This document shows, piece after piece, positions 1-5,289 of a stretch of DNA of 24,000 nucleotides; position 1 is the stretch's first letter, and every line of letters starts with the position of its first letter. The notes under the pieces were generated by a model. That model was not told the origin of the DNA and did no database searches. It was given only the letters and a program-made list of their open reading frames with translations. The translations under genes and the position numbers were made by a program. The stretch is from contig JBHJNL010000051.1 in NCBI GenBank assembly GCA_050330855.1, positions 1-24,000 of the forward strand. The letters run 5' to 3'. Source of the DNA: Thermosynechococcaceae cyanobacterium (GTDB taxonomy: Bacteria > Cyanobacteriota > Cyanobacteriia > Thermosynechococcales > Thermosynechococcaceae).

Positions 1-517
1 GAGCGACAGCCCTACGAACCGGTAATGCAAATAGAATCAGAGCCGACCAGTCCACTAAAGTTCCGGCGATAAAGATTTTTAGATCCACTCCATTCTGAAG
101 CACGGCCCGAGAGGCGAGAAAACAGTAGGCCACAATAGCAAGACCAATGATCAGCCAGTGCCGTTGCTTTTTACCCATGAGGCCAGCAGCTAGACTTGCG
201 ATAGCAGCCCCTCCCACCGTCACCGGCAACACCCCCGCCGTATAGGGCGCTAAAAACGCCCCAATAAAAACCCCAATACTGCAGGCCACCGCCCCCGCTA
301 CCGGCCCCAACAAAAAACCAAGTAGCGGTAAAATACCGCCGCTTAACGGAACCGCACTAGCTGAAGTCCCCAGCGTGATTGAGATCGGAATAAAGGATAG
401 CGCCGTCACCACCGCCGCCAAAACAATAATGTAGGCGATGGGGGTGCCATCAATAGAGGCACTGCCTAAAAAGCGAACCTCGCGCTCCTGGGCCTCTGCA
501 GGAATTTTGATCGTCAT
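1..517 (-). CDS. Integral membrane protein, 3'-truncated by the window edge; family not recognised (permease or ECF S-component-like)
   Basis: Absent from the ORF track because it runs off the left edge. The minus-strand ATG is at 517-515. I hand-translated 172 codons down to position 2 with no stop: MTIKIPAEAQEREVRFLGSASIDGTPIAYIIVLAAVVTALSFIPISITLGTSASAVPLSGGILPLLGFLLGPVAGAVACSIGVFIGAFLAPYTAGVLPVTVGGAAIASLAAGLMGKKQRHWLIIGLAIVAYCFL... The Gly/Ala/Leu/Ile-rich segments look like several transmembrane helices. Confidence 0.55.
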   Translation of the reverse strand, partial: MTIKIPAEAQEREVRFLGSASIDGTPIAYIIVLAAVVTALSFIPISITLGTSASAVPLSGGILPLLGFLLGPVAGAVACSIGVFIGAFLAPYTAGVLPVTVGGAAIASLAAGLMGKKQRHWLIIGLAIVAYCFLASRAVLQNGVDLKIFIAGTLVDWSALILFALPVRRAVA

Positions 518-1484: not shown

Positions 1485-2093
1485 CTACCCAATCCACTGC
1501 ACTTCAGAACTATCATCCGGTTGGATCAGAGTTGTTTTGGCTTGAGATAAGGTTGCTTTGGTATCCAAACCACGATCTTGGTGAGTGCTCGACTCCTCAA
1601 TGCCCGAAATTTCAGGACGTTTTTTCATCAACGCTCCCTCTAGTTTTTCTTGGGGGTATAGATAAGTGAGCAGAAAGTCTAACGTGGGCTGCTTAATGAC
1701 TCCTAACAAAACCGCTGCTGAACCAAAGCGTAGACCGGTTTGCCACTGCTCATGACAAACGGTATCAATTTGCGCTTGATCAACGAGCGCTGCTGCTTTT
1801 AGATAGTCACCGATACGTAGCTTCGCTGGCTCACAGATAGCCTTAATCCACTGTTCTGCAAAGAAGTCAGCCGTCTCTTGCTTCAGCCATCCCCGCAGTG
1901 CCAAGACTTCTCCCAATCGCATATCTGTATACAGCTCCTGATCATGGGCTGCGACAGAGATCTGAGCTGCAGAAATCAAACCAGCCTGCCGCAGAACCTC
2001 CCCAAGACGCTGCTGAGGAGACACTAGTCCCAGCGTCAGATCCTTTGATCGATAGGTTGTCGTGTGCATGGCAAGCGACTCTCTCAAGGACAA
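1485..2093 (-). CDS. Hypothetical protein with four 24-residue MshEN/T2SSE_N-like repeats arranged as two pairs
   Basis: 202-aa ORF. The repeats are RLGEVLRQAGLISAAQISVAAHDQ (aa 29-52), RLGEVLALRGWLKQETADFFAEQW (59-82), RIGDYLKAAALVDQAQIDTVCHEQ (93-116) and RFGSAAVLLGVIKQPTLDFLLTYL (122-145). The C-terminal third is polar and low in complexity. The start could instead be Met9 (2069). Confidence 0.7.
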   Translation of the reverse strand: MSLRESLAMHTTTYRSKDLTLGLVSPQQRLGEVLRQAGLISAAQISVAAHDQELYTDMRLGEVLALRGWLKQETADFFAEQWIKAICEPAKLRIGDYLKAAALVDQAQIDTVCHEQWQTGLRFGSAAVLLGVIKQPTLDFLLTYLYPQEKLEGALMKKRPEISGIEESSTHQDRGLDTKATLSQAKTTLIQPDDSSEVQWIG

Positions 2094-3319: not shown

Positions 3320-3481
3320 CTAAGAGCAGGCCAGCACTGTAAACAAAACCGTAAAAAAGCCCACCATTGCCAGTCGGCCATTCCATATCTCTGCCTCACG
3401 TGTCCACCCCCACTCCCAGCGAACAGAAGGTTCGACTGTCTCAGGCGATGGGTTCGACTCGGCGGAAGAAGTTGTGTACAT
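3320..3481 (-). CDS. hli: High-light-inducible protein (HLIP/Scp, one-helix CAB-family protein)
   Basis: Below the ORF-track size cutoff. Hand translation of the minus strand gives MYTTSSAESNPSPETVEPSVRWEWGWTREAEIWNGRLAMVGFFTVLFTVLACS* (53 aa). It carries the chlorophyll-binding HLIP signature W-G-W-T-x-x-A-E-x-W-N-G-R-x-A-M-x-G-F followed by a single transmembrane helix. ATG at 3481-3479, TAG at 3322-3320. Confidence 0.8.
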   Translation of the reverse strand: MYTTSSAESNPSPETVEPSVRWEWGWTREAEIWNGRLAMVGFFTVLFTVLACS

Positions 3482-3546
3482 CAGAAAAATCCCAGAGCAA
3501 CTGCAGATAATAGCTTCGAAACAGATTTAAAATCTTGCCTTTGAGC

Positions 3547-3564
3547 TACTTAAACTATCTTAAC
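3547..3564 (-). promoter_or_regulatory. HLR1-like direct repeat (possible RpaB-type site) in the hli promoter
   Basis: The minus strand reads GTTAAGAT-AG-TTTAAGTA, two 8-mers with a 10-bp period. This fits the HLR1 layout (G/T)TTACA(T/A)(T/A)-nn-(G/T)TTACA(T/A)(T/A) except that the core is AAG rather than ACA. The proximal repeat lies 17 nt upstream of a candidate -10, TAAATC (3529-3524), about 40 nt before the hli ATG. Confidence 0.3.
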
Positions 3565-3684
3565 AATACTTCCATTATTTTAGTACGAAGTGTTTATTAA
3601 GGCTAGAGTCTTCAGTCTTGGGCTTTGCGATCGCCCATCTCGGCAAGGGGATTTCTCTGTTCATGGAGTCCCAAGCCTCGCAGC

Positions 3685-3767
3685 AAAAAAATAAACCTTT
3701 GGCCATCTGCGCGGCCAAAGGTTTGGGTGGGGTTGCTTAGCCGTGGGGGTACACTGCCAAGCGCTAT
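3685..3767 (-). ncRNA. Candidate small RNA, copy 1 (5' stem-loop, C-rich single strand, intrinsic terminator)
   Basis: Minus-strand reading: (AUA)GCGCUUGGC-A-GUG[UACCCCC]CAC-G-GCUAAGC AACCCCACCCAAA CCUUUGGCC[GCGCAGAU]GGCCAAAGG UUUAUUUUUUUG. The terminator stem is 3696-3704/3713-3721 and the T-tract is the complement of 3685-3695. The 46-nt core 3722-3767 is 45/46 identical to 3862-3907. The 5' end is approximate and no transcript data are available. Confidence 0.5.
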
Positions 3768-3789
3768 GTGAATAATCTATCTCTTATTT

Positions 3790-3808
3790 GTGAAGAACTA
3801 GAGAAATC
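3790..3808 (-). promoter_or_regulatory. Conserved box upstream of sRNA candidate copy 1 (possible promoter element)
   Basis: Plus-strand GTGAAGAAcTaGAGAA matches 14 of 16 positions of the equivalent box at 3929-3944. Both boxes sit the same distance (22-23 nt) from the conserved core. Candidate -10 hexamers lie between box and core (minus-strand TAGATT or TATTCA). Confidence 0.25.
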
Positions 3809-3822
3809 TATTGTGATGGCCT

Positions 3823-3907
3823 AAAAATGATCAAACCCCTAGCCGTCTGCTTGGCTAGGGGTTTGGGTGGGGTTGCTTAGCCGTGGGGGTACACTGCTAA
3901 GCGCTAT
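3823..3907 (-). ncRNA. Candidate small RNA, copy 2 (paralogue of copy 1)
   Basis: Minus-strand reading: (AUA)GCGCUUAGC-A-GUG[UACCCCC]CAC-G-GCUAAGC AACCCCACCCAAA CCCCUAGCC[AAGCAGAC]GGCUAGGGG UUUGAUCAUUUUU. The terminator stem is 3836-3844/3853-3861. It differs from copy 1 at three base pairs, and all three changes are compensatory. Confidence 0.5.
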
Positions 3908-3928
3908 ATCTAAAGGTAGGGCCAGACC

Positions 3929-3950
3929 GTGAAGAAGTCGAGAAGAATGC
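3929..3950 (-). promoter_or_regulatory. Conserved box upstream of sRNA candidate copy 2 (possible promoter element)
   Basis: Plus-strand GTGAAGAAgTcGAGAAgaatgc. See the box at 3790-3808. Minus-strand TAGATA (complement of 3907-3912) is a candidate -10. Confidence 0.25.
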
Positions 3951-4110
3951 AGCATCCTGCCGATCTTTCTGGGTACACAATCATGACCAACACTGAAATC
4001 GCCATCTGTACAGCTTTTGATCAGTAGAGTTTTGCTATTGATAGAAAGGTTTTCAGCTTCTTCACTAACGAAGATCTAGGCAAAGATTTTGGTATTTTGG
4101 TGAAAATGAC

Positions 4111-4116
4111 TATAAT
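4111..4116 (+). promoter_or_regulatory. Candidate -10 hexamer for nadA
   Basis: A perfect TATAAT in an AT-rich stretch, 46 nt upstream of the nadA GTG start. TTGGTA, 16 nt further upstream, is a weak -35. GGAAAGG (4146-4152) lies just before the start and could serve as a ribosome-binding site. Confidence 0.3.
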
Positions 4117-4161
4117 TAGAATAGTTAAGAATAAAGTAATGCCAAGGAAAGGTGCTGAGAC

Positions 4162-5121
4162 GTGTTTACTGTCCTTCCTCCATCCGAGACTGCACTTCCT
4201 CTAGATCTCAACGCTGCCGTCGACGATCTCAAGCGAGATCTCAATGCAGTTGTTTTGGCTCACTACTATCAAGAGCCTGGAATTCAGGATGCTGCTGATT
4301 ATATTGGTGATTCATTAGGTCTGTCGCGGCAGGCCGCCAGTACCAGCGCCGATGTTATCGTTTTTGCCGGAGTTCATTTCATGGCAGAGACGGCGAAAAT
4401 TCTCAATCCTAACAAGCTCGTGTTGCTGCCGGATCTAGAGGCGGGCTGCTCCTTAGCCGATAGCTGCCCACCGGAGCAGTTTGCTGCCTTCAAGTCGGCT
4501 TACCCCAATCATTTGGTGATTTCTTATATCAACTGCTCAGCGGCGATCAAGGCCATGAGCGATATTATTTGTACCAGTTCTAATGCAGTGCATATCGTGC
4601 AGCAGATTCCTGCCGATCAATCCATCATTTTTGCACCGGATAAGAACTTAGGGCGCTACGTCATGGAGCAAACTGGGCGGGAGATGGTCCTCTGGGACGG
4701 AAGCTGCATTGTTCACGAAACGTTTTCTGAGCGGAAGTTGATTGAGTTAAAGGTGCAGCATCCTCAGGCAAAGGTGATCGCCCATCCTGAATGCGAGTCA
4801 TCCGTTTTAAGACATGCTGATTTTGTGGGGTCTACAACGGCGTTGCTTAGCTATGCTCAAGGGAGCGACGTTGATACCTTTATCGTGGTAACTGAATCCG
4901 GGATTTTGCACCAAATGCAGAAGCAGCATCCTGGTAAGACCTATATTCCGGCACCGCCAATGGAAAACTGTGCCTGTAATGAGTGCCCTTATATGCGTCT
5001 TAATACTCTAGAGAAGCTATACCTTGCGATGAAGGAGCGTGGCCCTGATATTACGCTGTCAGAAGAGATTCGGGTAGCGGCCCTGAAGCCCATTCAGCGA
5101 ATGCTGGAGATGAGCGCATAG
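4162..5121 (+). CDS. nadA: Quinolinate synthase A
   Basis: 319-aa ORF with a GTG start. It shows the characteristic NadA blocks: AHYYQ, Dxx[47 protein letters not shown] and [11 protein letters not shown] (the [4Fe-4S] cysteines). Confidence 0.95.
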
Positions 5122-5207: not shown

Positions 5208-5289
5208 TGCGGATGGCGAGAATCGAACTCGCAAGGCTTACGCCACACGCCCCTCAAGCGTGCGTGTCTACCAATTCCACCACATCCGC
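5208..5289 (-). tRNA. tRNA-Leu (anticodon GAG), type II with long variable arm; CCA not encoded
   Basis: Minus strand: GCGGATG TG GTG GAATTGGTAGA CAC G CACGC TTGAGGG GCGTG TGGCGTAAGCCTT GCGAG TTCGATT CTCGC CATCCGC A. The acceptor, anticodon and T stems pair perfectly. The T-loop is TTCGATT and the anticodon loop is U-U-GAG-G-G. The variable arm is GGC-GTAA-GCC. Confidence 0.95.

Follow-up and report, generated by a model that had tools for sequence, protein, structure and literature searches.

Tandem genes for a predicted C-rich small RNA family between an hli-like gene and nadA in relatives of Acaryochloris thomasi

The window analysed here is a stretch of 24,000 nt from a Thermosynechococcaceae cyanobacterium (GenBank assembly GCA_050330855.1, contig JBHJNL010000051.1, positions 1 to 24,000 of the forward strand). 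It contains a gap of 680 bp between an hli-like open reading frame (ORF) on the minus strand (3320-3481; 53 amino acids; single-helix chlorophyll a/b-binding family, Pfam PF00504, Chloroa_b-bind, 25.7 bits with a cut-off of 22.3) and the divergently oriented quinolinate synthase gene nadA on the plus strand (4162-5121; NadA, E 7e-121), which has its own conserved promoter at approximately 4089-4116. The gap holds an array of two 140-nt units that are read here as genes for small RNAs (sRNAs) transcribed from the minus strand. The hli-like gene lies 3' of this array and is co-oriented with it; hli and nadA are regarded as neighbours of the array only. A repeat search of the window revealed a direct repeat in two copies of 75 nt (3693-3767 and 3833-3907; 87% identity, offset of 140 nt) with a core of 47 nt (3721-3767 and 3861-3907), the sole mismatch in which is C at 3758 versus T at 3898. 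A search with a 37-nt core pattern gave exactly two matches in the 24 kb and none in 100 shuffles. The same repeat search showed that the box GTGAAGAAnTnGAGAA is common to both copies (3790-3805 and 3929-3944). Each copy also carries a perfect inverted repeat, CCTTTGGCC/GGCCAAAGG in copy 1 and CCCCTAGCC/GGCTAGGGG in copy 2, with stems reaching 12-13 bp (AAACC.../...GGTTT). An earlier note on this DNA, made by a model from the letters alone, had described a near-identical core recurring after 140 bp, the flanking genes, a hairpin next to each core and a shared upstream box. All four were recovered, with stems longer than noted and with the box as part of a promoter that is conserved in all of the 16 copies discussed below.

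All features of the two units are on the minus strand. Copy 1 ("type A"), which adjoins hli, spans 3686-3767 and would give an RNA of about 82 nt running from A3767 to the end of a U-run. Its 5' hairpin, GCUUGGC-A-GUG[UACCCC]CAC-G-GCUAAGC (3735-3762, loop 3746-3751; columns 8-35 of alignment A1, see below), is followed by the C-rich linker AACCCCACCC (3725-3734), which is predicted to be unpaired and whose extension, AAA, enters the terminator stem at its base. The intrinsic terminator (3685-3724), recognised by a terminator scan and by its compensatory pairs, consists of a 12-13 bp stem (3693-3724) and AUUUUUUU. The predicted promoter (3774-3805) comprises the box TTCTCTAGTTCTTCAC (3805 to 3790), a spacer of 10 nt and the -10 element TAGATT (3779 to 3774), with 6 nt left to the predicted start at 3767. 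Copy 2 ("type B"), far from hli, spans 3826-3907, with a predicted RNA that is likewise of about 82 nt and starts at A3907. Fold and alignment A1 place its 5' hairpin, GCUUAGC-A-GUG[UACCCC]CAC-G-GCUAAGC, at 3875-3902 (loop 3886-3891), and invariance and unpaired probability define its C-rich linker AACCCCACCC at 3865-3874. The terminator (3825-3865; terminator scan and covariation) has a 13-bp stem (3832-3865) followed by AUCAUUUUU, and the predicted promoter (3913-3944), with the box TTCTCGACTTCTTCAC (3944 to 3929), 10 nt and the -10 element TACCTT (3918 to 3913), leaves 5 nt to the predicted start at 3907.

Folded as minus-strand RNA, both copies adopt one common minimum-energy and centroid structure, in which a hairpin with a 6-nt loop and with stems of 7 and 3 bp, separated by a 1x1 A/G internal loop, is followed by 9-10 unpaired nt, AACCCCACC(C), and by the terminator hairpin; the unpaired linker between the two hairpins reads AACCCCACCCAAA. 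The folding energies are -33.5 kcal/mol for copy 1 (z = -4.9) and -39.8 kcal/mol for copy 2 (z = -7.6). Folding of the plus strand was less consistent (z = -1.8 for copy 1), and the terminator scan called both hairpins on the minus strand only, with the T-runs ATTTTTTT and ATCATTTTT. The structure could be assessed further in an alignment (A1) of 16 complete copies, in which pairing is kept in 99.7% of 330 stem cells for the 22 proposed pairs. All cells of hairpin 1 (columns 8-35) pair, one of its pairs passing from G-C through G·U to A-U. Changes on both sides were observed for four pairs, one in hairpin 1 and three in the terminator (C-G to U-A or A-U to G-C), and at all three terminator stem positions at which the window copies differ, the change in one arm is matched in the other (pairs 51-72, 52-71 and 54-69). 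The covariation score of 0.215 compares with 0.146 ± 0.011 in shuffles, none of 500 of which reached 0.215. When the 3' partners were slid by 1-3 columns, only 24-49% of the cells paired and the score fell to 0.01-0.11. RNAalifold, to which the structure was not supplied, returned the identical structure.

The strand on which the RNA is encoded can be read from the same alignment. Each of the 15 single-sided changes gives a G·U pair on the minus strand and an A·C mismatch on the plus strand, and none does the opposite, while only 95.2% of the stem cells would pair on the plus strand. The core difference at 3758/3898 corresponds to G·U versus A-U in column pair 12-31. By our own count, these changes go back to some 9-10 independent events, and the chance of such a pattern is about one in a thousand if transitions affect the pairing of either strand equally. 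Since the copies are closely related, with an effective sequence number of only 1.26 in the covariance model, the covariation is modest in absolute amount. The minus-strand orientation, the three compensatory pairs, the U-tract terminators on that strand and the tolerated wobble in the core, all of which the earlier note had put forward, are in agreement with these results, and the pairing is kept in homologues, a check that it had proposed. Its description of the 5' loop was right as to the C-rich character but not as to the length: the fifth C of the supposed UACCCCC pairs with a G in the GUG/CAC stem, which leaves a loop of 6 nt, UACCCC, with four C.

Upstream of the RNA, each of the 16 copies (alignment A2) has the box TTCyCnAsTTCTTCAC, exactly 10 nt, the sequence TAnnTT and then 5-6 nt to the predicted RNA start; the box of one copy deviates (TTCTTTAC). 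The start is placed at the conserved A of AUAGCGC, AUAACGC or ACAUCGC, and the box would span roughly -38 to -23. The copy at the outer end of each array has this layout too. Upstream of the box, no alignment of the copies is possible. The unit therefore extends from box to terminator, as would be expected of an autonomous gene. The invariance of the box suggests that all copies share one regulator or sigma factor. Inspection of the promoters by eye revealed no NtcA site (GTA-N8-TAC), no HLR1 repeat and no clear Fur box. A box-like sequence upstream of nadA (4050-4065) was dropped, as it is not conserved in other genomes.

The most conserved parts of the RNA are those that are predicted to be exposed. 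The loop with the inner stem, GUGUACCCCCAC, and the linker core, GCAACCCCA.CC, are invariant in 16 of 16 copies, as is the linker stretch AACCCCA.CC, and loop and linker have a predicted unpaired probability of at least 0.9; the exposed C-rich segments of the earlier note are thus found throughout the alignment. The terminator loop GCAGA (A1 columns 60-64; 3706-3710 and 3846-3850 on the minus strand of the window) is equally invariant, though the stem below it covaries, and may be a third functional site. The sequence AGCAG is also present in the 5' arm of hairpin 1, which is more conserved than the 3' arm. For comparison, third codon positions of nadA are 82% identical to those of the window in one related genome (L003), 61% in a second (L004) and 45-47% in the three most distant ones (L005, L006 and L031), while RNA columns 5-50 retain 89-98% identity to the window copies across those genomes. 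As judged from these identities, the predicted RNA is under strong purifying selection. The sole ORF within it, as read from the sequence, is GUG-UAC-CCC-CAC-GGC-UAA, which has 5 codons, lies inside the hairpin and lacks a Shine-Dalgarno sequence.

The 16 complete copies come from six genomes with arrays of 2-4, and a seventh contributes an incomplete copy; all are relatives of A. thomasi. The NadA protein of the window is identical to that of the metagenome-assembled genome (MAG) GCA_964435315.1, and its closest named relatives are from a Thermosynechococcaceae MAG (94%) and A. thomasi RCC1774 (83%). The gene order kept at the loci of the relatives is pterin-4a (+), small hli (-), a long gap with the array, and nadA (+). 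Two copies are present in the window, in L003 (Thermosynechococcaceae MAG) and in L004 (Logan assembly), three in L005 (MAG GCA_020357715.1) and in L006 (A. thomasi RCC1774), and four, with a period of 138 nt, in L031 (JGI metagenome, JGI 3300078836). The only genome added by way of an hli homologue, L032 (Logan assembly), has at least one copy, upstream of hli and co-oriented with it; the contig begins inside that copy. The array adjoins nadA in six genomes and is linked to hli in six of the seven. The exception is L005, in which the 3-copy array (1500-1923) is not separated from pterin-4a by an hli gene, so that linkage of the sRNA to hli is not obligatory. No element was found at the A. marina-type nadA loci (L007 and L008) or in L009, which have a different synteny.

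Whole-unit comparisons indicate two phases in the history of the array. Copy 1 of the window is 93% identical to copy 1 of L003 and 87% to that of L004, and copy 2 is 94% and 91% identical to its counterparts. Across these three genomes, copies at the first position share 87-93% identity and those at the second 89-94%, compared with only 73-77% between copies 1 and 2 within any one of them, from which it follows that the duplication predates their split. In L005, L006 and L031, a copy is most similar to other copies of its own genome, with up to 100% identity, which points to recent amplification or homogenisation. As two contigs (L002 and L032) start at position 1 inside a copy, assemblies apparently break in the tandem array, and copy numbers in draft genomes may be underestimates. 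In L006, some 100 extra nt between copies 1 and 2 (1997-2092, minus strand) contain a degenerate box, AGTTCTTCAT, and no RNA match; they are possibly the remnant of a decayed unit.

A covariance model (R1) built from the aligned copies was used to search the 24-kb window and 45 kb of related loci (68.6 kb). It scored the 16 copies at 98-111 bits (105.6 and 111.3 bits for copies 1 and 2 of the window), the next matches reaching at most 20 bits and being mostly terminator palindromes on the other strand; no other copy was found in either set. A scan of a genome collection for GTACCCCCAC-N6-10-AACCCCACC gave one genuine match, the MAG of L003, with two matches that are both at this locus; the other 18 were chance matches in unrelated phyla. 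Two matches in a metagenome scan were both due to chance, and no match to the element was obtained in plasmids, phages or viral contigs. Because the genome and metagenome collections missed A. thomasi (PQWO01000003) and JGI 3300078836, a narrow distribution is only weakly indicated by the lack of further matches there. When the whole window was compared with the 4227 models of Rfam 15 at the gathering threshold, only a tRNA was found, and at E <= 10 the region 3480-4165 gave four chance-level matches to unrelated families, far below their thresholds. Rfam is reported to include Yfr1, Cyano-1, NsiR9 and PsrR1, IsaR1 and PmgR1 being reported outside it. None of the 15 matches listed, out of 383, in a full-text literature search for the core strings was a cyanobacterial paper. 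The earlier note had recognised no known family, which agrees with the Rfam result, and the dispersed repeat that it had named as evidence against its reading was not seen in the searched sequence, R1 and the genome scan giving this locus only. The units have what is expected of a generic terminator-ended bacterial sRNA gene, namely a promoter, a conserved structure, a terminator, an intergenic location and no coding potential, with transcription being predicted.

Several observations were made on the neighbouring genes. The promoter and 5' untranslated region of nadA are strikingly conserved (4089-4164, plus strand), with TTTTGGTGAAAAyrACTATAATT and then AAGGTnyTGAGAC before the GTG start. 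This upstream region is shared by L003-L006, L031, L007, L008 and L009, including A. marina-type loci with other neighbours, and may represent an operator, for instance for an NAD regulator, that overlaps the -10 element. A gene for tRNA-Leu (anticodon GAG; 5208-5289, minus strand) is located just downstream of nadA. An HLR1-like direct repeat occurs upstream of hli in the window at approximately 3549-3570 (minus strand, TTGTTAAGATAGTTTAAG), in L006 at approximately 1765-1795 (minus strand, GTTTACATAAATTTGTTAAGATAGTTTAAG) and in L032 at approximately 120-150 (plus strand). This suggests that hli is served by an RpaB-type high-light promoter distinct from those of the sRNAs. The subfamily of the hli-like protein is very narrow and has W-x-W-G-W-T before the ExxNGRxAM helix, a place at which the usual hli motif is F-G-F-T. 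With the A. thomasi orthologue as query, two cluster representatives were retrieved from 5.8 billion proteins, the query itself and the L032 protein. An imperfect 19-nt inverted repeat (3529-3547 and 4072-4090, 74% complementary), which may be due to chance, brackets the whole array region.

The repeat, its strand, structure and conservation, the anatomy of promoter and terminator and the absence from Rfam are shown by the sequence analysis, and it is very probable that the units are independently transcribed sRNA genes on the minus strand. Each 140-nt unit would be a self-contained non-coding RNA gene, from which a non-canonical promoter (box, 10 nt and TAnnTT) would start transcription at about A3767 and A3907 to yield an RNA of about 82 nt. 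This RNA would display UACCCC in the loop of its 5' hairpin, followed by the unpaired linker AACCCCACC(C)AAA and a strong intrinsic terminator. The candidate seeds, the loop GUACCCCCAC and the linker AACCCCACCCAAA, would most likely bind target mRNAs by base pairing at G-rich sites, for instance GUGGGG or GGGUGGGG, and so change their translation or stability. That the RNA acts by base pairing through these C-rich segments is rated a little better than an even chance. Classical sRNA chaperones are not known to operate in cyanobacteria, and G-C-rich seeds fit that. The two window copies are old paralogues, the arrays of other relatives having grown to 3-4 copies by recent amplification, and several gene copies would raise the dosage of the sRNA. 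A role linked to light or stress is hinted at by the location of the array immediately upstream of hli. The account as a whole, that is, genes with individual promoters and terminators for sRNAs of about 82 nt that regulate in trans via C-rich segments, is considered reasonably likely.

A number of points weigh against this account. What is proposed on transcription and where it starts, on how the RNAs would pair, on their targets and on the signal that induces them is all deduced from sequence, and the RNA and its ends are predictions. The covariation rests on about 10 independent events. A generic sigma-70 consensus scan of the window did not call the sRNA promoters, owing to their unconventional -35 region. 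In A. thomasi (L006) and L005, the U-tracts of several internal copies are poor (UUUAACUUU and UUUUACAAUG), so that some read-through into the next unit is possible. The invariant GCAGA and the more conserved 5' arm are left unexplained by a simple two-seed model. No conserved target site was found in the translation-initiation regions of the ORFs of the 24-kb window or in the neighbouring genes of six genomes (hli, nadA, pterin-4a and DUF2949). The W-G-W codons of hli, GUGGGGGU, are perfectly complementary over 8 nt to the loop ACCCCCAC in the window and L031; this match is broken at the third position of the Gly codon in L003, L004 and L006 and is only a lead, as it is explained by protein coding.

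Some of these points would be accommodated if the RNAs were decoys, with the C-rich motifs and perhaps the AGCAG elements titrating a binding protein or a G-rich RNA in the manner of the CsrB/RsmZ sponges or the interplay of Yfr2 and Yfr1. Such a role is unlikely, albeit in line with the multiple identical motifs per locus (two per RNA in 2-4 genes), with conservation beyond the needs of pairing (the invariant 5' arm, the GUG/CAC inner stem and the terminator loop GCAGA), with the lack of a target among the neighbouring genes and with the sRNA-sRNA crosstalk that exists in cyanobacteria (PMC6778093). Two motifs per RNA are few for a sponge, no candidate partner emerged, and none of the neighbouring genes has an RNA-binding Pfam match, two of them having no Pfam family at all. 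We know of no C-rich-RNA-binding regulator in cyanobacteria, which counts against a decoy as well. The weak U-tracts of some internal terminators would fit units that act in cis, as a leader or "actuaton" that controls transcription into hli by regulated terminator read-through, a concept documented for Yfr2c of Synechocystis (PMC6596454). The array is directly upstream of hli and co-oriented with it in 6 of 7 genomes; all the same, cis action is quite unlikely, given that the 3-copy array of L005 has no hli, that hli has some 200 nt of upstream region of its own with the conserved HLR1-like direct repeat, and that the best terminator, with a 13-bp stem and seven U, is on the copy nearest hli. 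A conserved antiterminator pairing was not seen in A1 either, the linker being able to pair with the 3' arm of type B but not with that of type A.

Both hairpins are also palindromes in the DNA, as would befit tandem operator sites or a repetitive extragenic palindrome (REP)-like or miniature inverted-repeat transposable element (MITE)-like repeat. The palindrome of hairpin 1, TTAGCAGTG-N6-CACGGCTAA, lies just downstream of the predicted start, and its outer half resembles CIRCE, an operator (TTAGCACTC-N9-GAGTGCTAA) usually found just downstream of the start site. DNA palindromes have no strand polarity, so that the 15 of 15 single-sided substitutions that keep RNA pairing on one strand only contradict a DNA-level element, which is highly improbable. 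A CIRCE-like operator was rejected on strand polarity and spacing (a spacer of 6 nt, against 9 nt in CIRCE); the inner arms do not agree with those of CIRCE either. The parts conserved most, the C-rich loop and linker, are not palindromic; moreover, all copies are arranged strictly head-to-tail at a single syntenic locus, none being found elsewhere in the searched sequence, and the units are not flanked by visible terminal inverted repeats or target-site duplications. The location beside nadA in six genomes brings to mind the NAD+-I riboswitch (nadA motif, Rfam RF03013), which consists of two tandem bulged stem-loops with a ACANCCCC bulge (PMC7297122); the linker GCAACCCC fits CANCCCC, and CAACCCC is similar to the bulge. 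A relationship with this riboswitch can nevertheless hardly be credited. The RNA is on the strand opposite nadA and its transcription is predicted to proceed away from that gene, which has its own conserved promoter downstream of the array. Neither strand matched RF03013 with the threshold relaxed to E <= 10. The C-run comes after a closed hairpin instead of forming a bulge between P1 and P1a, there is no GYG internal loop (7 bp away in the riboswitch), and the following helix has no internal loop. The copy number varies from 2 to 4, each copy having its own promoter and terminator, and the nadA of A. marina is without such an element. On these grounds of strand, topology, missing RF03013 match and variable copy number, membership was rejected. 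It is also very unlikely that the RNAs are trans-acting sensors or decoys tied to their neighbours, either as a free-standing, rearranged relative of the ADP-binding module of NAD+-I beside nadA, with CANCCCC between coaxial helices, or as a multi-copy decoy for a G-rich RNA or a C-rich-RNA-binding protein that controls hli-family photoprotection genes.

Genes for trans-acting sRNAs remain the preferred explanation, and the sequence evidence for a new sRNA family of a known general kind, limited as far as seen to the A. thomasi-related clade, is well supported. Few cyanobacterial sRNAs have known functions, and nearly all of these are from a handful of model strains; the clade described here includes the culturable A. 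thomasi RCC1774, which makes the family directly testable. It is suited to an Rfam entry and forms a useful case of tandem sRNA gene amplification, and the invariant box defines the probable regulon of a common regulator. The family overturns no concept and opens no long-standing question by itself. As its architecture and likely mechanism are ordinary for bacterial sRNAs, the finding is of moderate weight.

A number of known systems share one or other trait with the array. The full motif of the cyanobacterial sRNA Yfr1 is ACUCCUCACAC. In the succession of a hairpin, an unpaired conserved motif and a second hairpin, the RNAs resemble Yfr1, the conserved motif of which, like that of Yfr10, contains UCCU (PMC6778093). 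The 5' motif of Yfr2 is nearly complementary to the Yfr1 motif (PMC6778093), and Yfr2 genes occur in 1-9 copies per genome (PMC6596454). Neither UCCU nor ACUCCUCACAC is present in any of the 16 copies, as the earlier note had remarked for the Yfr1 motif in the window, and there was no match to RF01116, so that the RNAs were not assigned to Yfr1/Yfr10. They were not assigned to Yfr2 either, as no Yfr1-complementary motif was found in the copies and no match was obtained to the Rfam model Cyano-1, which we take to represent that family.

The RsaE/RoxS sRNAs of Firmicutes are short and terminator-ended, and their exposed C-runs could bind G-rich sites with no need of a classical chaperone. They differ in that they target Shine-Dalgarno regions and are not tandem, whereas CCCCAC in the RNAs described here is no obvious anti-Shine-Dalgarno sequence; an Rfam match was lacking. 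The comparisons with RsaE/RoxS and with PrrF/OmrAB are analogies and do not imply membership. In NsiR1, each repeat has its own promoter and terminator. The likeness to it lies in the tandem architecture of the sRNA array, which in the case of NsiR1 is upstream of hetF (Ionescu et al. 2010, as summarised in PMC6596454). NsiR1 is under the control of NtcA/HetR and confined to heterocyst formers, in contrast to the box TTCyCnAsTTCTTCAC and the A. thomasi relatives here. The RNAs were not counted as NsiR1, since they match it in neither sequence nor structure, the Rfam results include no cyanobacterial family (an Rfam model of NsiR1 is unconfirmed), the neighbours are hli and nadA, and GTA-N8-TAC was not seen in the promoters.

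Among the cuckoo/CcsR RNAs of alphaproteobacteria, CcsR1-4 arise by processing of a transcript shared with a DUF1127 gene; the units of the present array, by contrast, each have their own promoter and terminator. The cuckoo/CcsR1-4 (RSs0680) group consists of clustered homologous sRNAs in up to 9 copies, in which a C-rich motif is kept while the stems covary; their genomic neighbourhoods are conserved, and some members are induced by heat or salt (PMC4615179, PMC8034643). The cuckoo motif, CCUCCUCCC, is anti-Shine-Dalgarno-like and present in each loop of an RNA with 2-4 hairpins (PMC4615179). Membership was rejected because CCUCCUCCC is nowhere in the copies, the loops of which are UACCCC and rmGCAGAy. 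The RNAs of the A. thomasi relatives, from another phylum, have UACCCC in a loop and AACCCCACCC in a linker. As clustered homologous sRNAs with a C-rich motif, the cuckoo/CcsR RNAs are, together with the RsaE/RoxS class, the closest to them in the logic of the motif.

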